From: Patescibacteria group bacterium | GTDB lineage: Bacteria; Patescibacteriota; Minisyncoccia; Phycocordibacterales; UBA918 | Direction of reading: 5' to 3' | Assembly (NCBI GenBank): GCA_040386275.1 | Contig: JAZKFU010000008.1 | Coordinates: 176,219-240,218, forward strand | DNA: 64,000 nt | Part shown: positions 3,952 to 58,411 of the stretch, in pieces | Layout of the letters: every line of letters begins with the position of its first letter | Numbering within the stretch: position 1 is the first letter of the stretch | Position numbers and translations under genes: made by a program | Notes under the pieces: model-generated | What the model was told of the DNA's origin: nothing | The model's input: only the letters and a program-made list of their open reading frames with translations | Database searches by the model: none

Positions 3952-4250
3952 AATTGTGATGTAATTGTACCTTATAGTACGCCGATTTGTCTCTGCTATT
4001 CACCAAATACTACAAAATTAATACAGTATTGTTTTTTAGAAATTATCTCAATTTTGTGTCCAGAGGCGAGGGCATTTCTAGGCGTGTAAGAAAAATTTTT
4101 TGAGCCGTACATTGGTACGGTGAAATAAATTTTATCGCAACTTGTCCAGCGATTTTCCCAAGTGAAGAAAAAATCGGGACAGAAATTCAGAATTGTCGCT
4201 ACGCTCTGTTCTTCATTCCACAACGAAATGCTCCGTCTATGGATACAAAA

Positions 4251-5370: not shown

Positions 5371-8214
5371 TTATTGTAATAACAAATTGAGGATTCGTCC
5401 TGGTACGTAAATAACTTTTTTGAGGGTTCCGCTCAGTAATTTTTCTTGTAATAACGGGTTATCTTGGACAGCATTTAACGCTTCTCCTTCCGTAGCGTCC
5501 GGGGCAATGGTGATATTCCCTCGTAATTTACCGTTAATTTGCACGCCAATAACGACAGTTTCATCAATAGCGAGCGTCATATCGGCTACGGGGAAGGTTT
5601 CGGTGTGGACAGAACAAGTGTGTCCAAGCTGAGTCCAGATTTCTTCAGTCAAATGAGGTGCAAACGGAGCGAGAATCCGAACAAATAACTCATATGAGGC
5701 TTTGGTAATACTGCCCTTTTCAGCCAGGTTTACCAAAATCATCATCGCGGAAATAGCGGTGTTATATTTGAATTCCAGAATATCAGTCCCTACTTTTGCG
5801 ATAGTTTTATGGAGCTGGCGAGTAAGTTCTGTTGGTTCAGAATCACCAATATGGTCTACCAGTCCATACACCCGCTCCAAGAACCGTCGCACGCCAGCAA
5901 TGCCTCCAAAGTCCCACGGGTAGCTACTATCAGCGTACGGACCCATAAACGCCAGATAGATTTTTACTGTATCAGCACCAACAAGTGCTACTTGTGCATC
6001 GGGGTCAACCACGTTGCCTTTACTCTTACTCATTTTGTTACCGTCCGGACCCAAAATCATGCCGTGATTCACACGTTGCTTATATGGTTCACTTTCAGTG
6101 ACGAGACCTAAGTCAAAGAGCGCCTTTTGCCAAAATCGTGAATAGAGTAAGTGCATGGTGGTGTGTTCAGCGCCACCAAAATACATATCAATCGGCATCC
6201 ATTCCTTTTGCGCTTCAAGGGAGGCAAGACCTCCTTCGTTTTTGTTATCAAGGTAGCGCAAGAAATACCACGATGAATCAACAAACGTATCCATGGTTTC
6301 TACTTCAGGAGTCCACCCCGAACCAAAGATTTCTTCAGTTCGTTTTTTAAGCGCTTCACTTTTAGCGAGAGGTGCAACCCCGGTTGGTTTAAAATCTACA
6401 TCCTCTGGCAGTACCCACGGTAAATGTTCTTTGGGAACAATATGCGCTTCTCCTGTTGGAGAATAGACAATCGGAATCGGCACGCCCCAATACCGTTGCC
6501 GACCAATAGACCAATCACGCAACCGAAAGGTTGAGGTCATCTCACCGCCCACCTTGGCAACAATTTTTTCTTTAGCCTCTTCCGAATCCATCCCATCAAA
6601 TTCATCGGAGTTTATTAAATATCCATCGCCTGTAATGGCTGATTCTTTTTGTAGCATTTGCCACACTTGTTTTTGGTGGTCAGGAGTTAGTTTTGCAAGC
6701 ACTTCTTTCTCGTCTACCCAAACAAGTGTATGTATTGCTGATTCTGATTCTGGTATGACACCTTGTTCGTTTAGATTCTCAACTTCACCTAAAAATGCGT
6801 ACGTGTGGGCACAACGGTTTTGTTGCTTGTGTGAAGCACAGTATTTAGCAGCAGTAATCCATTTTAATTTTGAAACAATAGTTACTCTGTTGAGAGCTGC
6901 TTCCTCATTCATTTCCGCCAACGCTGCTTCTTCCGGAGTTTGTCCATTTTCAATACCACCCATGATTGCAGTAGTTATACCCTCAAGAGTGCCGTGCCAA
7001 TTAAGGAGTGCGAATTTACCGGTACTTTTGTCTCTGAGATGAATAATAACGGTGTCGCGTTTTACTTCTTTAAATTCCGGTCTTGGTGGATTCTTTGAAT
7101 CATCTGCGCAAGGGACGATAACTTGTTTAATCGGCAATCCAAACTTAGTAGCAAAGGCGTAATCTCGCTCATCGTGCGCGGGTACAGCCATAATAGCGCC
7201 GGTGCCATAACCGCCTAGTACATAATCAGCCACATACACAGGAATCTGTTCCCCGCTGGCTGGATTGGTCGCTGTTATACCAGAGAGTACCACCCCGGTT
7301 TTCTCTTTAGTGGCGTCGAGTCTATCCTGTTCATCCTTTTGCGTAGCTGTTTTTACATATGCATCAACGTCCGCTAAGTTCGAGGTCTCGCCTCGAACTT
7401 CTGATTTGCTGAGTAACGGGTGTTCGGGGGCAAGTACTAAGTACGTAGCGCCAAATAATGTGTCAGGTCGAGTGGTAAATACCGTTACAACATCGCCAGT
7501 TGAGAGGGTGAAGTTTATTTTTGCTCCCTTACTGCGACCAATCCATTGGCGTTGCGCTTCTTTGATATGGTCTGGCCAGGCTACGGTGTCTAAATCATCA
7601 ATTAATCTATCTGCATAGTCGGTGATTTTCATCATCCACTGTGGCATTTCGCGTTTTTCAATCACATCACCCGATCGCTCACAGGTGCCATCGGTTAACA
7701 CTTGTTCATTGGCAACCGCCGTATTACATCCCGGACACCAGTTCACAATACCTTTACCTCGATAGGCAATACTTTTTTCGAAAAATTGGGTAAACATCCA
7801 CTGCGTCCATTTGTAGTAGTCTTGATCGGTTGAATTAGTAGTTTTGTCCCAACTAAACATGTTACCCATGCGTTCGAGCTGTTCACGCATAAAGGCCATA
7901 TTTTCATAGGTCCAATCTTTGGGATTGAGGTTACGTTTAATAGCAGCATTTTCAGCCGGAAGACCAAAGGCATCAAATCCAATCGGATACAGTACCTGGT
8001 GACCACTCATACGTTTATAGCGCGCGTAAATATCGGGTACAGCAAACGCATACCAGTGGCCAATATGTAAATTGCCTGAAGGGTACGGCCATTCTACGAG
8101 GACGTAGGACTTTGGCTTTGATCGATCGCGCTCCCCTACATTGTATATACCTGATTCTTTCCAAATGGCTTGCCATTTCTTTTCTATCTCACCAGAATCA
8201 AATTTTTTGTGCAT
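5371..8214 (-). CDS. leuS: leucyl-tRNA synthetase (947 aa) with an internal Nudix-like insertion
   Basis: HIGH motif (PYPSGNLHIGH), KMSKS (KMSKSKGNVVDP), TTRPDT CP1 motif at residues 247-252, RLRDWSIGRQRYWG; extra ~135 aa with a Nudix-box-like GGIENGQTPEEAALAEMNEEAAL between the CP1 hinge and the catalytic core. Confidence 0.9.
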   Translation of the reverse strand: MHKKFDSGEIEKKWQAIWKESGIYNVGERDRSKPKSYVLVEWPYPSGNLHIGHWYAFAVPDIYARYKRMSGHQVLYPIGFDAFGLPAENAAIKRNLNPKDWTYENMAFMREQLERMGNMFSWDKTTNSTDQDYYKWTQWMFTQFFEKSIAYRGKGIVNWCPGCNTAVANEQVLTDGTCERSGDVIEKREMPQWMMKITDYADRLIDDLDTVAWPDHIKEAQRQWIGRSKGAKINFTLSTGDVVTVFTTRPDTLFGATYLVLAPEHPLLSKSEVRGETSNLADVDAYVKTATQKDEQDRLDATKEKTGVVLSGITATNPASGEQIPVYVADYVLGGYGTGAIMAVPAHDERDYAFATKFGLPIKQVIVPCADDSKNPPRPEFKEVKRDTVIIHLRDKSTGKFALLNWHGTLEGITTAIMGGIENGQTPEEAALAEMNEEAALNRVTIVSKLKWITAAKYCASHKQQNRCAHTYAFLGEVENLNEQGVIPESESAIHTLVWVDEKEVLAKLTPDHQKQVWQMLQKESAITGDGYLINSDEFDGMDSEEAKEKIVAKVGGEMTSTFRLRDWSIGRQRYWGVPIPIVYSPTGEAHIVPKEHLPWVLPEDVDFKPTGVAPLAKSEALKKRTEEIFGSGWTPEVETMDTFVDSSWYFLRYLDNKNEGGLASLEAQKEWMPIDMYFGGAEHTTMHLLYSRFWQKALFDLGLVTESEPYKQRVNHGMILGPDGNKMSKSKGNVVDPDAQVALVGADTVKIYLAFMGPYADSSYPWDFGGIAGVRRFLERVYGLVDHIGDSEPTELTRQLHKTIAKVGTDILEFKYNTAISAMMILVNLAEKGSITKASYELFVRILAPFAPHLTEEIWTQLGHTCSVHTETFPVADMTLAIDETVVIGVQINGKLRGNITIAPDATEGEALNAVQDNPLLQEKLLSGTLKKVIYVPGRILNLLLQ

Positions 8215-8352
8215 ACAATGGTATTACGCGTGTTAGGAATAGATTCACATTATGTCTTTAGTTTCTTAAATAGTCAAAGACGCTCCATAAAAATGAAGCG
8301 TCGTAGTTTTACCGTTGTTCGTGTATGCACGAATCTATTGTATGAGTTGTAG

Positions 8353-12584: not shown

Positions 12585-12700
12585 CTTTCAGAATTGGCGA
12601 ACTACTGCGTTAGCCTGCGTAAAATAATCCTCACCGTACAAAAAGTACGGCTCGTCATATTTTACTAGTCTGCCTTGTATTTCATCCAATTCTGAAAGTT
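12585..12700 (-). repeat. dispersed ~90-nt element, copy E1 (reverse orientation), overlapping a 58-bp local direct repeat
   Basis: reverse complement gacgagccgtactttttgtacggtgaggattattttacgcaggctaacgcag matches the consensus seen at 13741, 17535, 27325 and 57779. Confidence 0.6.
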
Positions 12701-12837
12701 CTAAACCATACTTTGATTACTCATACAACTAATTTTTGAGGCAATTTTTTCTTATATTTGGAAAATCGCTGGACCGCTGCGAAAGATGTTCTTGCGCTTC
12801 TAGCACTGCACTCAATTTAAAATTCCTTACCCTATAT

Positions 12838-12895
12838 AAAGTACGGCTCGTCATATTTTACTTGTCTGCCTTGTATTTCATTCAATTCTGAAAGT
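12838..12895 (-). repeat. 58-bp direct repeat copy E2 (about 92 percent identical to 12642-12699), partial copy of the dispersed element
   Basis: aaagtacggctcgtcatattttact(a/t)gtctgccttgtatttcat(c/t)caattctgaaagt present twice, 196 bp apart. Confidence 0.6.
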
Positions 12896-12999
12896 CCAAA
12901 TCTATTACTTGGGTACTTCAAATTGTTTACTACTGATTGATTTACATAATGTAGATATGTGATATAAAAATTGGTAGAAACATCCTTGTGGGGAGGTAC

Positions 13000-13740: not shown

Positions 13741-13815
13741 AAATTAGGAGACGTACTTATTGTACGTTGACGATTATTTTGCGAGCTGCAACGCAGAAGC
13801 TAACGATTTTTAGGA
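13741..13815 (+). repeat. dispersed ~90-nt element, copy A
   Basis: gacgtacttattgtacgttgacgattattttgcgagctgcaacgcagaagc: hairpin plus conserved tail. Confidence 0.55.
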
Positions 13816-17534: not shown

Positions 17535-17630
17535 GTGCTAGGAGCGCAAGAATAATTTTATGTAGACGTACTTCTTGTACGGCGGAATAAAATTTTCGTA
17601 GCAGCGACAACGCAATGTGCCGTTTGTGGA
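17535..17630 (+). repeat. dispersed ~90-nt element, copy D
   Basis: gctaggagcg...atgtagacgtacttcttgtacggcggaataaaattttcgtagcagcgacaacgcaatgtgccg. Confidence 0.55.
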
Positions 17631-27223: not shown

Positions 27224-27324
27224 AGATTATATCACGAAAAGCAAATAATTCAACCCCACAGTATGGTGAGATGTTCAGTACGTTTTTACAATCAACGCAG
27301 ACAATATGAGGTGTTTTTTAAAAT

Positions 27325-27425
27325 CGAGCAGATGCGCGACGACAAGTAAAATAATGATGAGCCGTACTCCTTGTACGGTGAATTATTATTTTGCGCAGGC
27401 AACAAAGCAGGTGCCGATTTTTAGA
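27325..27425 (+). repeat. dispersed ~90-nt element, copy B (followed by a partial second copy to about 27490)
   Basis: gatgcgcgacgacaagtaaaataatgatgagccgtactccttgtacggtgaattattattttgcgcaggcaacaaagcaggtgccg. Confidence 0.6.
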
Positions 27426-53195: not shown

Positions 53196-55337
53196 TTAAA
53201 ACAACCCTTTCTTCTTCTTGACTTTGATACCCGTGGACTGTTCTTCAAAAAAAGCAATTTCATCACGAATAATAGCTGCGGTTTCAAAATCGAGAATGGC
53301 TACCGCGTCTTCCATTTGCTGACGTTTTTCTTTAAGGACTTTAGCGGGGTTACGTTTAAAGAGTTCTACGTCGACCTTAAGCAAAGTTTCTACTGTTTCG
53401 TCGTGTTCGGTGCGCATCTGATCGGTAATTGATTTAATGTCTTTGGCGATAGTAGTCGGAGTAATGCCATGTTTGGTATTATGAGCAACTTGAATCGCGC
53501 GACGACGATTAGTTTCATTTATGGCGTACGTTAACGCATCAGTCATTTCATCCGCATACAGAATCACGCGACCCAACACGTTACGAGCAGCACGACCAAT
53601 CGTTTGAATTAACGCCGTCTCACTGCGAAGGAACCCAGCCTTATCAGCATCAAGAATCGCTACTAGCTCCACTTCCGGTAGGTCAAGCCCTTCACGCAGT
53701 AAGTTTACCCCCACTAAACAATCAAACTTCCCTTTACGAAAATCAGTTAAGATTTCGATTCGTTCAATAGTTTTAATATCACTGTGAATATACTTGGTGT
53801 TTATTTTCTTCTCCGTTAAAAATTCAGCCAAGTCTTCAGCCATTTTTTTTGTTAGCGTAGTTGTAAGCACTCGACCTCCGCCCGCTATGACCCGCTCTGC
53901 TTCGGCGATAAAGTCTTTAATCTGCCCTGGGTAGTCGCCAATTTGATTTACTTTCCGTAAATCAATTTCCGGATCAATTAACCCCGTTGGGCGAATAATT
54001 TGTTCAACCACAGCACCTTTTTCAAGACAAAGATTAAGGTCAAAACCTTTAATCCACTCTGACCGAATGGATTTAACTTCCCCGGCCTTTTGCACAGGCG
54101 GACAGGCCATAGGACAACATAGTTCGTATTCTAATCGTCCTGGAGTAGCTGAGGTGTAGATTCGTTGTCCTACGCGTTCATCAAATTCAGCGTATTTAAG
54201 CGGCCGGTTATCAACGGCCGACGGTAATCGAAAGCCGAATTCAACCAGCGTGTCTTTACGACTACGATCGCCCGCATACATACCATTTAATTGCGGCAAC
54301 GTTACGTGCGACTCATCAATAATGGTGAGAAAATCTGGTTTTCCTTCAGGTGTGTGAGGGAAATATGATAACAGCGTAAACGGTGCTTCGCCGGGTTTAC
54401 GACGATCAAAGTGTCGCGAATAATTTTCAATCCCGTTACAGTAACCAATCTCACGCATCATCGCTAAGTCGTGATTGGTGCGCCGACGCAACCGCTCTGA
54501 TTCAAGCAACTTGCCTTCTTTTTTAAATTTCTTTAATTGTTCATCGAGCTCAAGTTTTATATCTTCAATGGCAACTTTCCGCTCATCTTCTGGTGTCACA
54601 AAGTGTTTGGCTGGAAATAAGAAAAAGACTTCCGGTTCCTCAATAATGGCGCGACTAACACTATCAATTTTGGTAATTGATGAAATGACATTTCCTGAAA
54701 AGCCCAGACGATAAATCATCCGTTCGTTGGTGGGCATGATTTCAATGGTATTTCCGACCGCCCGGAAATGACCAGGCAATAAATCAGCGTTGGTTCGTTC
54801 AAAGTACATATCAATCAAGATACGCAGTAACTCCATCCGCGTCGTTTCAAACCCGCGTTTAATCTGTAAATGTTTCTTTAAATATTGGGCTGGCGAACCC
54901 AATCCATAAATACATGATACTGAAGCCACAATAATCACGTCTTTTCGCGTTAACAACGCTTGGGTTGACGCGTGCCGCAATCGGTCAATCTCTTCGTTTA
55001 CCTGCGATTCCTTTTCAATAAACGTGTCTGAGGTTGGCATGTACGCCTCTGGCTGGTAGTAGTCGTAATACGACACAAAGTAATGCACGGCATTATTAGG
55101 AAAAAAGTCCCGGTATTCTTGCGCGAGCTGAGCCGCCAGGGTTTTATTGTGAGCAATAACAAGCGTCGGTTTTTGAATCTGCTGAATCACATTCGCCCCG
55201 GTAAACGTCTTTCCTGACCCAGTAACACCTAAAAGTGTCTGGTGTTTTTGCCCAGCCCGTACCCCCGCCACCAACTGTTCAATCGCCTTAGGCTGATCCC
55301 CCGCTGGTGTTTTTTCCGTAGAAATCTCAAATTGCAT
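53196..55337 (-). CDS. uvrB: excinuclease ABC subunit B
   Basis: MQFEISTEKTPAGDQPKAIEQL N-terminus, Walker A GVTGSGKT, helicase motifs, C-terminal UVR domain AAIIRDEIAFFEEQ; start at the internal Met. Confidence 0.9.
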   Translation of the reverse strand: MQFEISTEKTPAGDQPKAIEQLVAGVRAGQKHQTLLGVTGSGKTFTGANVIQQIQKPTLVIAHNKTLAAQLAQEYRDFFPNNAVHYFVSYYDYYQPEAYMPTSDTFIEKESQVNEEIDRLRHASTQALLTRKDVIIVASVSCIYGLGSPAQYLKKHLQIKRGFETTRMELLRILIDMYFERTNADLLPGHFRAVGNTIEIMPTNERMIYRLGFSGNVISSITKIDSVSRAIIEEPEVFFLFPAKHFVTPEDERKVAIEDIKLELDEQLKKFKKEGKLLESERLRRRTNHDLAMMREIGYCNGIENYSRHFDRRKPGEAPFTLLSYFPHTPEGKPDFLTIIDESHVTLPQLNGMYAGDRSRKDTLVEFGFRLPSAVDNRPLKYAEFDERVGQRIYTSATPGRLEYELCCPMACPPVQKAGEVKSIRSEWIKGFDLNLCLEKGAVVEQIIRPTGLIDPEIDLRKVNQIGDYPGQIKDFIAEAERVIAGGGRVLTTTLTKKMAEDLAEFLTEKKINTKYIHSDIKTIERIEILTDFRKGKFDCLVGVNLLREGLDLPEVELVAILDADKAGFLRSETALIQTIGRAARNVLGRVILYADEMTDALTYAINETNRRRAIQVAHNTKHGITPTTIAKDIKSITDQMRTEHDETVETLLKVDVELFKRNPAKVLKEKRQQMEDAVAILDFETAAIIRDEIAFFEEQSTGIKVKKKKGLF

Positions 55338-55401
55338 GACTATCCAGTATACCCCGCCCCCCATAATATAAAAAGCCACCCCACCCCCGCCACCATTTCA
55401 C

Positions 55402-55463
55402 ACAAGTACGAGGTTAAACCTCGTACTTGTGCACTCTAAGTCCGAGGTTTAACCTCGAACTTG
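55402..55463. repeat. REP-like palindromes (two tandem copies) upstream of the transposase gene
   Basis: acaagtacgaggtt-aa-acctcgtacttgt perfect inverted repeat at 55402-55430; degenerate copy gtccgaggtttaacctcgaacttg at 55439-55463. Confidence 0.7.
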
Positions 55464-55486
55464 TTGTATCCTTAATTTAAATATCT

Positions 55487-56080
55487 ATGGGAAATAGATT
55501 ATTTACTTTTTCAAGTAATGAAATCTACCACTGTTATAATCGCGGTGTAGATAAACGTACTATATTTGAGGACCAGCAAGATTTTATATATTTTTTAAAA
55601 CTTTTAAGAAATTTTAATACCTCAAAAGTATATGGAAATTTAAGATTATCTCTCAATAAAGAGCCCATAAATCCTCCAGTAACAATACTTACGTATTGCT
55701 TACTTCCAAATCACTTCCATATAGTAATACGTAATAATAGTGACGAGGGAGGATTATCAAAATATATTCAACGAGTTGTAGGCGGTTACACGATGTATTT
55801 TAATCAAAAACATAAAAGAAGTGGTGCTTTGTTTCAAGGAACGTTTAAAGCAAAACATATTGAAACAGATTTGTATTTACGTCATATTTTAGCCTACGTA
55901 CGGTATAACAATATTGTTCACGATGTAGAAGACAAAAATTTGTACCGGAGCTCATTAAATACAAAAGACGACTTAGTACGAGGTTTAACCACAGACCTAG
56001 GAGAAGAAAATATGTTGGAAGTAGTTAAAATTATAAAAGAAATCAGAAGTACGAGGTTAAACCTCGTACTTGAGGAGTAA
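55487..56080 (+). CDS. tnpA: IS200-like / REP-associated tyrosine transposase (HUH Y1 family)
   Basis: YHCYNRGVDKRTIFEDQQDFIYFLKLL, HUH motif LLPNHFHIVI, catalytic-Tyr region AYVRYNNIV; the C-terminal 10 codons read through the right REP. Confidence 0.75.
   Translation: MGNRLFTFSSNEIYHCYNRGVDKRTIFEDQQDFIYFLKLLRNFNTSKVYGNLRLSLNKEPINPPVTILTYCLLPNHFHIVIRNNSDEGGLSKYIQRVVGGYTMYFNQKHKRSGALFQGTFKAKHIETDLYLRHILAYVRYNNIVHDVEDKNLYRSSLNTKDDLVRGLTTDLGEENMLEVVKIIKEIRSTRLNLVLEE
56045..56075. repeat. REP-like palindrome (right flank, inside the tnpA 3' end); a partial extra copy lies at 55974-55990
   Basis: agaagtacgaggttaaacctcgtacttgagg. Confidence 0.7.
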
Positions 56081-56087
56081 ATATAAA

Positions 56088-56128
56088 AATTGACGATGGG
56101 GCGCTTATGCCCCATCGTCTTTTATTTT
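56088..56128. terminator. bidirectional terminator
   Basis: gacgatggggc-gcttat-gccccatcgtc 11-bp stem; A-run before and ttttatttt after. Confidence 0.65.
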
Positions 56129-56394
56129 GCTTTTGTCCAGCCATATGACTGCAACACTAGACTGAACCGCACTTCTTTTTCTGAAGTTGGAGCTTCTGAA
56201 CTGTGCTCCATCCGTACGTTGATGAGACCGGTAAAAGGATCTGCGATTACTCCTACCACCTTGTGCGGTAACTCATAATCGGCTTCTTTGGGAAGAATCG
56301 CGACACGTGTACCCAATTCAGGGGGAACGATGAATTTTGACGTAAGTAATAGGTCTTCACCCGCAACCGTCATACGAAGAACAACAGTGTTCAT
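56122..56394 (-). CDS. hypothetical protein (90 aa)
   Basis: ORF only. Confidence 0.35.
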   Translation of the reverse strand: MNTVVLRMTVAGEDLLLTSKFIVPPELGTRVAILPKEADYELPHKVVGVIADPFTGLINVRMEHSSEAPTSEKEVRFSLVLQSYGWTKAK

Positions 56395-56439: not shown

Positions 56440-57681
56440 TTATTTTTGCAACAATTGGTCACGCAAATTCTTTGTGAAGTTGACGATGAAATTTAGGTTG
56501 TGGATGGAGGCTAGGTGGGGGCCGAGGATTTCGCCAGCGCGGAACAAGTGGGCTACGTAGGCTTTAGTGTAGGTTTGAGCGACGTGGCCGGTTGAGAGTG
56601 GATCAAGGACGGAATGATCGGTTTTATATTTGGCGTTTAAGAGACTAATTTTTTTAGTTACCGGATAGGTAAAGGTACCACACGGAGTAGTTTTCATTTC
56701 ACCGGTTAGTACATAAATTGTTCCCGTGCGACCAATACGAGTGGGAGCGACACAATCAAAGGTGTCACAGCCCATCAGGATGCCTTGGACGATGTCTTCT
56801 GGCTCACCAATACCGAGCAAGTGACGTGGTTTGTCTTCAGGGAGGATTTCGTTAACAACCCGGAGACTATCTCCCAAATCATCTTTAGAAAAGCTACCAC
56901 CAATACCAAAGCCATCAAAGTCCATATCAGATAATGCCCGGGCTGACTCTTGTCGCAAATCTAAAAATTGACCACCTTGAATCACACCATAGAGACCTTG
57001 CTTCTTTAAGGCTTCATAATTATTTTTATGCGCCATAATACTGCGTTTAGCCCAACGATGCGTACGGTCCATTGCTTCTTTTTGGTAGTCACGGTCGGCT
57101 GTAGGGCTGGTACATTCATCAAAGGCAATAATGATGTCAGCCCCAATAGCATGCTGGATATCAATCGAACGTTCAGCAGTAAAGCGATGCATTGAACCAT
57201 CAAGATGTGATGTGAAGGTTACGCCTTCTTCATCGATAATACAAAGCTTGCCGTGATCTTCGGCCACTTTAAGGGAATAGACATTGAGTCCGTGTTTTTC
57301 TACCGCATCACTGACATCGCCCTGCGCAAACTTAGTAACCCCTTTGCCAAAAGCAGCTCCTAAACTAAACACCTGAAAGCCACCGGAATCGGTCATAGTG
57401 GGCATCTGCCAATTGGCGAATTGATGTAATCCACCCGCTTCTTTAATTACATCGTGACCAGGCTGAAGGAATAAGTGGTAGGTATTGGCGAGGGTAACTT
57501 GATTGCCAACGTACTGTTTTAAATCTTCCGGCATCAGACTTTTAACACTTGCTTTGGTTCCCACCACCACAAATGCTGGCGTTTGAATGTCACCATGGAG
57601 CGTCGAAATCACTCCCGCGCGCGCGAGGTTCCCTTTCCCTTTTGCCTCAATCTTAAACGTAACCGGTTTTGTAATAGCCAT
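56440..57681 (-). CDS. tgt: queuine tRNA-ribosyltransferase
   Basis: TIM-barrel Tgt motifs: TPAFVVVGTKASVK, LANTYHL, GIGEPED, Zn-site CDTFDCVAPTR; start at MAITKP. Confidence 0.85.
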   Translation of the reverse strand: MAITKPVTFKIEAKGKGNLARAGVISTLHGDIQTPAFVVVGTKASVKSLMPEDLKQYVGNQVTLANTYHLFLQPGHDVIKEAGGLHQFANWQMPTMTDSGGFQVFSLGAAFGKGVTKFAQGDVSDAVEKHGLNVYSLKVAEDHGKLCIIDEEGVTFTSHLDGSMHRFTAERSIDIQHAIGADIIIAFDECTSPTADRDYQKEAMDRTHRWAKRSIMAHKNNYEALKKQGLYGVIQGGQFLDLRQESARALSDMDFDGFGIGGSFSKDDLGDSLRVVNEILPEDKPRHLLGIGEPEDIVQGILMGCDTFDCVAPTRIGRTGTIYVLTGEMKTTPCGTFTYPVTKKISLLNAKYKTDHSVLDPLSTGHVAQTYTKAYVAHLFRAGEILGPHLASIHNLNFIVNFTKNLRDQLLQK

Positions 57682-57778
57682 AAACCCCGATACTATACAC
57701 GAAAACCAAAACAAAAACACAAACCAAATGTTTGTGTTTTTGCCTCTAATCTATTAACTCTAAAATTGTTTAAATTAT

Positions 57779-57865
57779 TCGAGATGCGCGAAGGACAAGT
57801 AAATCATCGTGAGCCGTACTTCTTGTACGGTGAATGAGGATTTGCGCTGGCCGACAAAGCAGATT
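57779..57865 (+). repeat. dispersed ~90-nt element, copy C
   Basis: cgagatgcgcgaaggacaagtaaatcatcgtgagccgtacttcttgtacggtgaatgaggatttgcgctggccgacaaagcag. Confidence 0.6.
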
Positions 57866-57877
57866 GGATGATTTTAA

Positions 57878-58411
57878 CTATTTTACTTCTAGTAACTCGA
57901 TTGAGAATACTAGAGTAGCCTTACCCGGGATTGGACCATAGCCATTGTCTCCATACGCCAAATCTGATGGAATCACCAAAATTCGCTTACCACCTACTTT
58001 CATACCAACTACTCCCTCTTCCCAGCCTTTAATCACACGTCCTTCCCCTAGCGTGAATTCAAACGGTTCACCTCGTTTGTTTGAATTATCAAATTCTTGT
58101 CCGTTGGGTAACGTACCGATGTAATGTACCGATACTGTATCTCCGATTTTTGCTTCAGCTCCACCACCAATCACCACGTCATCGATAATTAATTTTTCCA
58201 CAGTACCATTTTGATTAGTGCCTTCGAGTAATGCATTTCGTAACTCCGTGTTTTGGTCAGCTCCGTCCCCTACCGTCACCACCGCACTTGCTACCTGAGA
58301 ATTCGTATCGTTTACTGCAATAGCCGAAGTCTCGAGATTGATAAGATACAAGGCAAGAGCCATAGACATGATACTCGCTCCAATACCTAGTAATTCAAAT
58401 TTATTAAACAT
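57878..58411 (-). CDS. FKBP-type peptidyl-prolyl cis-trans isomerase (membrane-anchored or secreted)
   Basis: VHYIGTLPNGQEFDNS...GEGRVIKGWEEGVVGMKVGGKRILVIPSDLAYG matches the FKBP_C signature; N-terminal hydrophobic segment. Confidence 0.85.
   Translation of the reverse strand: MFNKFELLGIGASIMSMALALYLINLETSAIAVNDTNSQVASAVVTVGDGADQNTELRNALLEGTNQNGTVEKLIIDDVVIGGGAEAKIGDTVSVHYIGTLPNGQEFDNSNKRGEPFEFTLGEGRVIKGWEEGVVGMKVGGKRILVIPSDLAYGDNGYGPIPGKATLVFSIELLEVK

Follow-up and report, generated by a model that had tools for sequence, protein, structure and literature searches.

A probable REP-associated tyrosine transposase system of Patescibacteria: a vertically inherited HUH/Y1 gene between uvrB and tgt and its matched hairpins

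We analyzed a stretch of 64,000 nucleotides from contig JAZKFU010000008.1 of a Patescibacteria group bacterium (hereafter the window), centering on a gene for a HUH/Y1 protein that lies between uvrB and tgt and carries short palindromic hairpins before, within and at the end of its reading frame. The evidence makes it quite probable that this gene codes for a domesticated, single-copy, vertically inherited single-stranded DNA (ssDNA) nuclease-transferase of the TnpA-REP-like type, i.e., a Patescibacteria counterpart of the repetitive extragenic palindrome (REP)-associated tyrosine transposases (RAYTs), accompanied by its own cognate REP-type hairpins. The REP/RAYT pairing is the best-known case of a host-tamed transposase with miniature substrates and has been characterized mainly in Proteobacteria, where the repeats are GTAG-tagged and mostly extragenic. 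RAYTs are defined by their presence in single copy, in the same extragenic slot within a lineage, by vertical descent and by flanking REP doublets (PMC5581495; 10.1101/2021.07.10.451892). The window locus works like such a REPtron but departs from it on two classical criteria, namely the GTAG tag and the match to the curated protein model.

The 197-residue product displays the motifs YHCYNRG (residues 14–20), HFH (residues 76–78; nucleotides 55712–55720) and AYVRYNN (nucleotides 55892–55912), the last of which includes Tyr137 (55895–55897). It matches the Pfam Y1_Tnp model (PF01797) over residues 65–140 with 26.7 bits against a gathering cut-off of 23, which bears out an earlier interpretation of this open reading frame (ORF), made from the letters alone (the sequence-only reading), as a Y1 HUH transposase. 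The protein has more than 400 homologues, nearly all of about 195 residues and from Patescibacteria-type metagenome bins; PF01797 is found on every listed homologue having a precomputed domain, and H76, H78, Y137 and N141 never vary among 32 aligned homologues. An AlphaFold (AF2) model derived from the alignment of these 32 has a predicted local distance difference test score (pLDDT) of 84.9, with residues 1–4 and 192–197 as its low-confidence parts; the latter fall below a pLDDT of 50 and are predicted to be disordered. The top match of the model among solved structures in a Foldseek search was 4er8_A (E 6.8e-6, 174 aligned columns), which is the E. coli TnpA-REP, a REP-associated transposase bound to a REP hairpin (PDB 4ER8). 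The TnpA proteins of IS608 and ISDra2 rank after it, and the top 23 matches are all RAYT, IS608 or ISDra2 TnpA. A profile search against PDB sequences also placed 4er8 first, if weakly (E 0.04). Relative to the described RAYTs, the window protein additionally has a C-terminal extension of about 50 residues. Its predicted structure thus marks it as an intact HUH/Y1 enzyme closest to TnpA-REP.

Four copies of one palindrome are found at this gene. An exact 25-mer, AAGTACGAGGTTAAACCTCGTACTT, occurs upstream at 55404–55428 (with arms of 14–15 bp, extended to 55401–55431) and again at 56047–56071, an imperfect copy with one stem mismatch, AAGTCCGAGGTTTAACCTCGAACTT, lies at 55438–55462, and a half copy, AGTACGAGGTTTAACC, at 55975–55990. 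Scanning the window with the gene-flanking core and up to 3 mismatches returned 4 matches versus 0.00 expected from 100 shuffles; the window's stem reads AGTACGAGG/CCTCGTACT. The loop of the proximal upstream hairpin (HP2) is inverted relative to that of the distal one (HP1; TTTAA vs. TTAAA), the latter having the orientation of the 3′ hairpin, and the two fold as one long hairpin with −23.7 and −25.6 kcal/mol on the two strands (z about −8.7). This pair has the geometry of a REP doublet (REPIN). The 3′ palindrome codes the protein's tail RSTRLNLVLEE (nucleotides 56045–56077). The internal hairpin of the window has lost its right arm while the other three remain intact; folding indicates that the internal and 3′ hairpins, which are both transcribed and mutually inverted, can pair with each other. 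The sequence-only reading had correctly picked out the same perfect palindrome on both sides of the gene and the partial copy within it, missing that the latter occupies a position conserved in the family; the degenerate copy that it placed upstream is equally real, but is inverted and not, as had been supposed, in tandem.

Hairpins in the same three positions (upstream, around codon 163, and at or just after the stop) were seen in 19 of 19 related loci inspected base by base, and in each of these loci all the hairpins share one locus-specific stem. The upstream hairpin lies 40–60 nt before the ATG, with extra copies farther upstream in some loci, as in the window, where HP2 is the one at the site shared by all orthologues (−40 to −60 relative to the ATG) and abuts a −10-like box. 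The hairpin ends directly at this TG-n-TATAAT-like box, which is found 6–10 nt from the start codon (e.g., CTTGTGTATAATTACAATAATG in locus L003) and is weaker in the window than in its relatives. Hence, the upstream hairpin is probably promoter DNA of a leaderless mRNA rather than a structure in a 5′ untranslated region and, given the distance of the −10 box from the start codon, it probably lies outside the gene's own transcript. The internal hairpin, at codons 162–164, codes (L)VRG(L)(A/S)SN and is perfect or near-perfect in most orthologues, and the 3′ hairpin lies within the ORF throughout the uvrB-tgt clade, coding a conserved RS(S/T)RxDLEL. The upstream and 3′ hairpins of most orthologues in the clade have loops inverted relative to each other (TCTTG vs. 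CAAGA). Moreover, Y1 genes that are 40–50% identical to that of the window are present on many other Patescibacteria contigs, and in 19 of the 26 such loci scanned perfect hairpins that match one another recur in this layout, built on another stem, ACTTGGAGG(Y)...(R)CCTCCAAGT. They are found at −37 to −70 upstream, internally at codons ~58–62 and/or ~147–151, and at the stop or shortly past it.

Comparison of the aligned loci shows that these stems change by compensatory substitutions. The commonest stem, found in the majority of loci, is AGTTCGAGG/CCTCGAACT, and the orthologues differ among themselves (AGTACGAGG, AGTTCGAGG, AGTCGGAGG and ACTTGGAGG); the stem of L089 is AGT(T/C)GGAGG/CCTCCAACT, with the protein motifs shifted accordingly to LVGGL and RSRRQDLQL, and that of L092–L094 is CGAGTT/AACTCG. 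Across 50 hairpins 6 of the 11 stem pairs have changed on both sides and 89.8% of the cells are paired, although the hairpins were chosen for their ability to pair, which biases the paired fraction and leaves the double changes unaffected. The covariation score is 0.127 versus 0.056 in shuffles, none of 500 of which reached it, and it collapses in slid controls. The codons that make up the hairpins are near-monomorphic in 13 syntenic orthologues: Arg165 is CGA in 12/12, Gly166 GGT in 12/13, and Ser188 AGT, Arg190 AGG, Leu193 CTC and Leu195 CTT in 13/13 each, whereas equally conserved arginines, leucines, serines and glycines outside the hairpins use 3–6 synonymous codons each. Therefore, the target of selection, or of a correcting process, is the nucleotide sequence itself.

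That the last codons of the gene are supplied by the palindrome, as claimed at the outset, thus holds, but their origin in a recent extension or repair of the frame by REP insertion does not: the tail is conserved across the clade, and in distant relatives the hairpin follows the stop. In the latter (L091–L094 and L017) it lies 1–29 nt past the stop codon, while in L088 the ORF enters the 3′ hairpin in another frame (VRGKTSNL). With the hairpin outside the ORF in distant relatives, a frame variant in one locus, and the last six residues predicted to be disordered, the sequences are best explained by an old, clade-wide read-through into a pre-existing 3′ hairpin after loss of an ancestral stop.

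To trace the position of the gene, every locus with a Y1 gene was searched for matches to UvrB, Tgt and FKBP of the window. All 16 orthologues with at least 58% identity and enough flanking sequence occupy the same slot, with uvrB on the minus, the Y1 gene on the plus and tgt on the minus strand, and one further orthologue in this slot was found beyond these. For instance, orthologues with 86% and with 63% identity both have uvrB on one side and tgt on the other, with the FKBP and PGA_cap genes next in line, while relatives of about 60% identity or less that lack uvrB-tgt synteny sit elsewhere (61% in the case of L088). Pairwise Y1 distances correlate with the combined distances of UvrB and Tgt (Mantel r 0.70, permutation p 0.003), and this agreement is as tight as that between UvrB and Tgt themselves. 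The median ratio of nonsynonymous to synonymous divergence (dN/dS) is about 0.10 over the 8 pairs with usable dS; even in the nearest pair, the window and L001, dN is 0.10 and dS 2.2, i.e., synonymous sites are saturated. On this comparative evidence the Y1 gene is under purifying selection and fixed between uvrB and tgt. It is single-copy in the window; plasmid records held only relatives of less than 32% identity and phage records none. Thus, the multiple copies and recent transposition that characterize IS200/IS605 elements give way here to a fixed locus, a single copy in the window and saturated dS at one site. The GC content of the gene (0.31 vs. 0.44–0.46 in the neighboring genes) had suggested a recent horizontal arrival. 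This was rejected, as all 12 syntenic orthologues (L001, L003, L027, L034, L060, L081, L084–L087 and L089) show the same dip, with the Y1 gene 3–14 points below uvrB/tgt; the low GC thus characterizes the gene as such and does not point to a recent arrival.

One tgt-adjacent slot, L050 of bin JBNKWW01, keeps only the last ~100 nt of the Y1 gene (911–1008), from an internal-type to the 3′ hairpin. Its sequence suggests that recombination between the upstream and internal hairpins, which are co-oriented, deleted the rest; at least 5 other loci of this bin still have perfect hairpins. The possibility that the L050 doublet, whose spacer resembles the C-terminus of the Y1 protein, is a REPIN mobilized from the gene's 3′ end was discarded because the adjacent tgt and FKBP genes identify it as the orthologous locus with its gene body deleted. 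Another genome has two paralogues on one 120-kb contig: one (L162, 2501–3094) occupies the slot between uvrB and tgt and has a hairpin that has diverged (GAAGGAGGC...), and the other (L161, 2501–3136) lies beside genes for a LexA-like S24 peptidase and a DinB-type polymerase and has four AGTTCGAGGC hairpins. These neighbors, the hairpins in recG and dinB-like genes (see below) and the adjacency to uvrB hint, as a pattern of gene order, at an association with DNA-repair genes. The same tendency toward repair genes has been noted for intragenic REPs (PMC3733652).

The hairpins also exist apart from the gene. A scan of 185,579 species-representative genomes (596 Gb) for perfect hairpins of the form AAGTWCGAGG-N3-7-CCTCGWACTT found 71 loci, against about 11 matches that we calculate to be expected by chance. 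Of these, 26 agree with the chance expectation: they are singletons in unrelated phyla, and most of their loops measure 3, 4, 6 or 7 nt. The other ~45 belong to ~20 Patescibacteria-type bins and have 5-nt loops in nearly all cases; several such bins have 3–6 matches on separate contigs, with a maximum of 6 contigs per metagenome-assembled genome. Only six of the scanned loci contain a Y1 gene, the remainder being standalone hairpins, which occur in both orientations and in some cases as inverted doublets 29–73 nt apart. Within a bin, the loops mostly agree (CAAGA, CGAGA and TGAAA in three different bins). Several intergenic copies have the 5′ flank ATTACACCACACTTTT in common, and many (L044, L057, L048, L038, L025, L045, L054 and L039) the 5′ flank ATTACACCACAC(T)TTTT, 2–4 nt from the foot of the hairpin. 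The latter flank, which is absent from the gene-linked copies of the window, may be part of the mobile unit or a guide/cleavage region. Bin JAZKIJ01, closely related to the source genome (92.8% nucleotide identity across 5.2 kb), contributes five perfect-copy loci, and one of these (L039) is a standalone intergenic copy of the exact 25-mer flanking the window's gene.

Many standalone copies lie in frame within genes: in leuS (four bins, one site), alaS (two bins, one site, opposite loop orientation), recG (two bins, one site, differing frames and copy numbers) and a PrmC-like methyltransferase gene (two bins, doublets), as well as in a MurC-like ligase gene and a DinB-type polymerase gene. The hairpin unit has no stop codon in any of its six frames, reading KFEARPRT, SSRQDLEL or VRGKTSN. 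The alaS site codes VRGKTSN in one bin and VRGLASN in the other, with the loop flipped (L077, 2520; L059, 7782), and the recG copies are at ~2640 in L028 and 1611–1664 in L019; such differences at orthologous sites suggest, on sequence grounds, that events recurred there or that the loop was inverted, in preference to a single insertion passed on by descent. The window itself has a fifth copy, AAGTTCGAGGTCTCGCCTCGAACTT, at 7376–7400 in leuS, which the sequence-only reading had overlooked. A strict core scan (at most 3 mismatches) had made the palindrome appear confined to the Y1 gene, a view that was dropped when a scan with the family pattern recovered this copy. Accordingly, the palindromes are not restricted to the surroundings of the gene, which had been named as an outcome that would undermine the RAYT interpretation: they are met in leuS, as the 25-mer of L039 and as standalone copies in related bins. 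A hairpin with a bin-specific loop also fills this leuS site in L012, L031, L049 and L052, while the leucyl-tRNA synthetases (LeuRS) of the more distant Patescibacteria L115 and L118 are without the motif and 2 residues shorter there. A clean insertion of 9 codons was thus rejected, because the segment is only 2 residues longer than in hairpin-free LeuRS; by this alignment, the leuS hairpin is a replacement within a variable linker.

By analogy to the E. coli TnpA-REP (4ER8) and the IS608 TnpA (PMC8266576), the protein would bind the folded hairpin on ssDNA, for example at replication forks, cleave beside it by means of Tyr137 and an HUH-bound metal, and rejoin the strands such that hairpins are copied or corrected. 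Such an activity could have seeded the dispersed copies and would keep the gene-linked copies matched to the enzyme. The overlap of the upstream hairpin with the promoter suggests feedback on the enzyme's own transcription, with the hairpin probably serving either as a handle for the enzyme or through the formation of a cruciform or hairpin; in the mRNA, base pairing between the internal and 3′ hairpins is a further possibility. The C-terminal tail would go back to a stop codon lost in the ancestor of the uvrB-tgt clade, after which the frame continued into the 3′ hairpin.

Several observations weigh against a RAYT-type system. The single NCBIfam match of the protein, to NF047646 (REP_Tyr_transpos, an equivalog model), scores 42.2 bits against a cut-off of 80, and it is from homology only that we infer the binding and cleavage of single-stranded hairpins. 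The GTAG guide tetranucleotide is absent 5′ of the hairpins, whose flanks are CACAC, CTCT, ATCAG and others. The window has 5 copies in 64 kb, 4 of them at the gene, which is far below the tens to hundreds of classical REPs. Furthermore, the dispersed copies differ from the gene-linked variant in loop or stem (the leuS copy by one base pair and the loop), which weakens the case for present-day activity on them, and several are at orthologous sites in different genera and may be old relics. A genome-wide homogenization of dispersed to gene-linked copies was considered and not seen, since the loops and one stem pair differ. To these are added the bias in the paired fraction mentioned above and the fact that symmetry-preserving changes could also stem from "palindrome correction" by template switching or from a dimeric binder of double-stranded DNA (dsDNA).

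Some features of the locus would also be expected if the hairpins acted at the level of RNA or expression (mRNA stability, translation or termination), or as operators for a dimeric dsDNA regulator, without being processed by the Y1 protein. The internal and 3′ hairpins are transcribed and can pair mutually, the upstream one overlaps the promoter region, perfect inverted repeats with a 3–5 bp center have the typical shape of an operator, and REPs and IS200 hairpins are known to modulate expression (PMC3733652). However, the upstream hairpin is probably outside the gene's own transcript, and a gene-specific role does not explain hairpins found in both orientations at unrelated intergenic sites and in leuS, alaS, recG and murC-like, dinB-like and prmC-like genes; strict Watson-Crick compensation at several stem positions fits a folded strand more than operator half-sites. 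We therefore regard this explanation as unlikely. We give still less credence to an upkeep of the palindromes independent of any protein, by template switching at quasi-palindromes or local gene conversion, with a purely historical association to the Y1 gene. It is the least probable of the explanations considered: it would account for the loop flips at orthologous sites (VRGKTSN vs. VRGLASN in alaS), for the persistence of perfect stems in coding DNA and for the three gene-linked copies being more alike than the dispersed copies are to them, but it leaves unexplained both the superfamily-wide retention of hairpins, with stems particular to each family, at three or four shared positions and the invariant catalytic residues.

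A different history would make the locus a fossil insertion sequence (IS) of the IS200/IS605 type that inserted once between uvrB and tgt and became stuck, its palindromes being the subterminal hairpins of the left and right ends. It would share with the window's gene the Y1_Tnp domain and the next-best folds (IS608 and ISDra2 TnpA), IS200-family ends have similar subterminal hairpins, the gene is AT-rich compared to its flanks, and RAYTs are thought to have descended from such an ancestor (10.1101/2021.07.10.451892). Yet a dead IS would have decayed, whereas this ORF is intact with a dN/dS of ~0.1 despite saturated dS, and its position is the same in 16/16 orthologues down to 58% identity. 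The low GC is common to 12 syntenic orthologues, the upstream and 3′ hairpins are usually inverted and not co-oriented, a third, internal hairpin is conserved, hairpins stand alone without the gene, and there are no close plasmid or phage copies. Even the sole "empty" site, L050, still has the 3′ 100 nt, the gene having lost an internal stretch between two hairpins. A fossil IS thus seems quite improbable to us, ranking between the expression-level and the protein-independent explanations. The preference of the sequence-only reading for a RAYT-type gene over IS200 is upheld by the fold match to 4er8_A, the fixed slot in 16/16 orthologues, the co-divergence with the neighboring genes and the standalone hairpins.

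Set beside known systems, the window locus resembles most the REPtron, i.e., the E. coli-type RAYT/TnpA-REP with its REPs, bacterial interspersed mosaic elements (BIMEs) and REPINs (PDB 4ER8, PMC8266576, PMC5581495, 10.1101/2021.07.10.451892). Both have the HUH/Y1 fold, for which the REPtron enzyme is the best structural match, and a single-copy, vertically inherited chromosomal gene at a fixed locus, flanked by short hairpins that include an inverted doublet; in both the hairpin is dispersed as standalone copies with lineage-specific variants, and a second paralogue (in the window's case, that of one related genome) has its own variant. In contrast to the REPtron, the window's hairpins have no GTAG (or CGTC) tetranucleotide at the foot, and the protein is below the NCBIfam RAYT cut-off, has ~16% identity to 4ER8 and bears the ~50-residue C-terminal extension. 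The copy number is very low, a large share of the standalone copies is intragenic, one hairpin is conserved within the gene's own coding sequence (CDS) and a second forms the C-terminus, and the host belongs to the Patescibacteria, whereas the RAYT surveys consulted describe other phyla. IS200/IS605 TnpA proteins (IS608, ISDra2 and IS200), a family that is the probable evolutionary ancestor of the window's Y1 gene, share with it the catalytic domain and, by analogy, the chemistry and the recognition of subterminal ssDNA hairpins. These elements are multi-copy, mobile and often plasmid-borne, with co-oriented end hairpins and defined cleavage sites, while the window's gene does not move, has kept its synteny across deep divergence and evolves under purifying selection, and its hairpins also occur where the gene is missing.

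Two further systems are of relevance. Intragenic REPs and Rickettsia palindromic elements (RPE) likewise are short palindromes in frame inside housekeeping genes, many of them for replication and repair (PMC3733652); they differ from the present case, in which a 25-nt hairpin open in six frames has an identifiable cognate Y1 gene and conserved codon positions across the superfamily. REPs overlapping the 5′ or 3′ end of RAYT ORFs have already been recorded as "5′ov" and "3′ov" (PMC3733652). The terminal-inverted-repeat-associated tyrosine transposases (TIRYT, subclass 2.1 TnpA-Y1) are RAYT-like proteins without classical GTAG REPs and with extra C-terminal domains, but are flanked by long terminal inverted repeats, whereas the window's repeats are true short palindromes (PMC6006769, PMC3733652). 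As RAYTs flanked by REPs, ORF ends overlapped by REPs and intragenic REPs are all documented, the window locus is an extension rather than a new principle. A literature search of incomplete coverage returned no description of REP/RAYT systems in Patescibacteria (or the Candidate Phyla Radiation, CPR), which is absence of evidence only; a broad survey of the TnpA-Y1 class makes no mention of such systems in Patescibacteria (PMC6006769), and we found no description of the self-targeting hairpin layout of Patescibacteria Y1 genes in the searchable literature.

A RAYT-type system at this locus would bring the REP/RAYT logic to the ultra-small Patescibacteria with a different hairpin and without GTAG, and with the presumed substrate of the enzyme built into its own promoter, CDS and C-terminus, where it is held by selection on DNA and not on protein. 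The motifs VRGL.SN and RS.R.DLEL would be a case of dual coding, dictated by DNA structure. The many orthologues at one fixed locus, with three matched hairpins each, provide a natural data set for the co-evolution of enzyme and hairpin, and they caution that genes annotated as "transposase" can behave like housekeeping genes. More tentatively, and with doubt prevailing, one may envision a Patescibacteria-wide superfamily of domesticated Y1 enzymes that keep their own hairpin substrate at the promoter, within the CDS (at codons ~60 and/or ~150–165) and at the stop, with the copies co-evolving with the enzyme and selection at the nucleotide level overriding synonymous drift. If this were true, the gene would be a self-targeting unit, whose enzyme could monitor or restrain its own expression, or take the gene encoding it as a hairpin reference; hairpins open in all six frames would have been seeded into essential genes (leuS, alaS and recG), and the REP/RAYT system would be adapted to genomes with almost no intergenic space.

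The coordinates of the gene, its neighbors and the hairpins are collected in Table 1. A search of the whole window against Rfam at gathering thresholds returned two tRNAs only and no match at the hairpins. The hairpin at 56092–56119 is GC-rich, unrelated in sequence to the REP-type hairpins, and looks like a bidirectional terminator closing the Y1 transcription unit. L001 and L003 lack the 90-residue ORF that follows it: in these loci tgt comes directly after the Y1 gene.

Table 1. Positions of the Y1 gene, adjacent genes and hairpins in the window.
Feature	Coordinates	Strand	Remarks
uvrB	53196–55379	−	5′ neighbor of the Y1 gene, divergent
HP1 + HP2 inverted doublet	55396–55468		one long REPIN-like hairpin, either strand
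HP1, distal upstream hairpin, CACAAGTACGAGGT-taa-ACCTCGTACTTGTG	55401–55431		14-bp perfect stem; in the divergent uvrB/Y1 intergenic region
HP2, proximal upstream hairpin, AAGTCCGAGGT-tta-ACCTCGAACTT	55438–55462		one C.A mismatch on the + strand, equal to G.T on the − strand
RAYT-like HUH/Y1 gene	55487–56080	+	197 residues, intact ORF
Internal hairpin position	55975–55997	+	codons 163–170, LVRGLTTD; left arm AGTACGAGGTTTAACC intact, right arm CACAGACC decayed
3′ hairpin, AAGTACGAGGT-taa-ACCTCGTACTT	56047–56071	+	within the ORF, codes residues 187–195
Terminator-like hairpin, GACGATGGGGCG-ctta-TGCCCCATCGTC, then T-run	56092–56119		bidirectional, intrinsic type
90-residue ORF without Pfam match	56122–56394	−	between the Y1 terminator and tgt
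tgt	56440–57720	−	
FKBP-type isomerase gene	57878–58411	−	
Standalone hairpin, AAGTTCGAGG-tctcg-CCTCGAACTT	7376–7400		in frame in leuS (− strand, ~5374–8223), codes EVRGETSNL

Other repeats of the window belong to different families. A dispersed repeat of ~35–100 nt with the core hairpin (C)CGTAC-N5-GTACG(G) occurs at 12623–12721, 12819–12917, 13749–13783, 17564–17598, 27314–27410 and 57766–57862, the last copy falling in the gap that separates the FKBP gene from tgt. Rfam gave no match to this repeat, whose sequence shows no relation to the Y1-linked hairpins. A functional link between this ~90-nt element and the Y1-linked palindrome through a common GTACG had been proposed and is not supported by the stems: the majority stem AGTTCGAGG and the window's leuS copy are without GTACG, which is present only in the A-variant of the Y1-linked stem, and the hairpin of the other element is CCGTAC-N5-GTACGG. 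An inverted pair of 44 nt (4144–4187 and 12731–12774, 80% complementary) matches a 99-nt stretch of a JAZKIJ01 contig (L039, 4679–4775) with 89% identity, and, from this match, is probably a second small dispersed element of the lineage. Finally, the LeuRS ORF (5374–8223, minus strand) has a Pfam NUDIX match of 34.8 bits at residues ~391–518, between the editing domain and the rest of the synthetase. The alignment of the window's LeuRS to that of L052 is split around this segment, and a NUDIX module in a leucyl-tRNA synthetase would be unusual.

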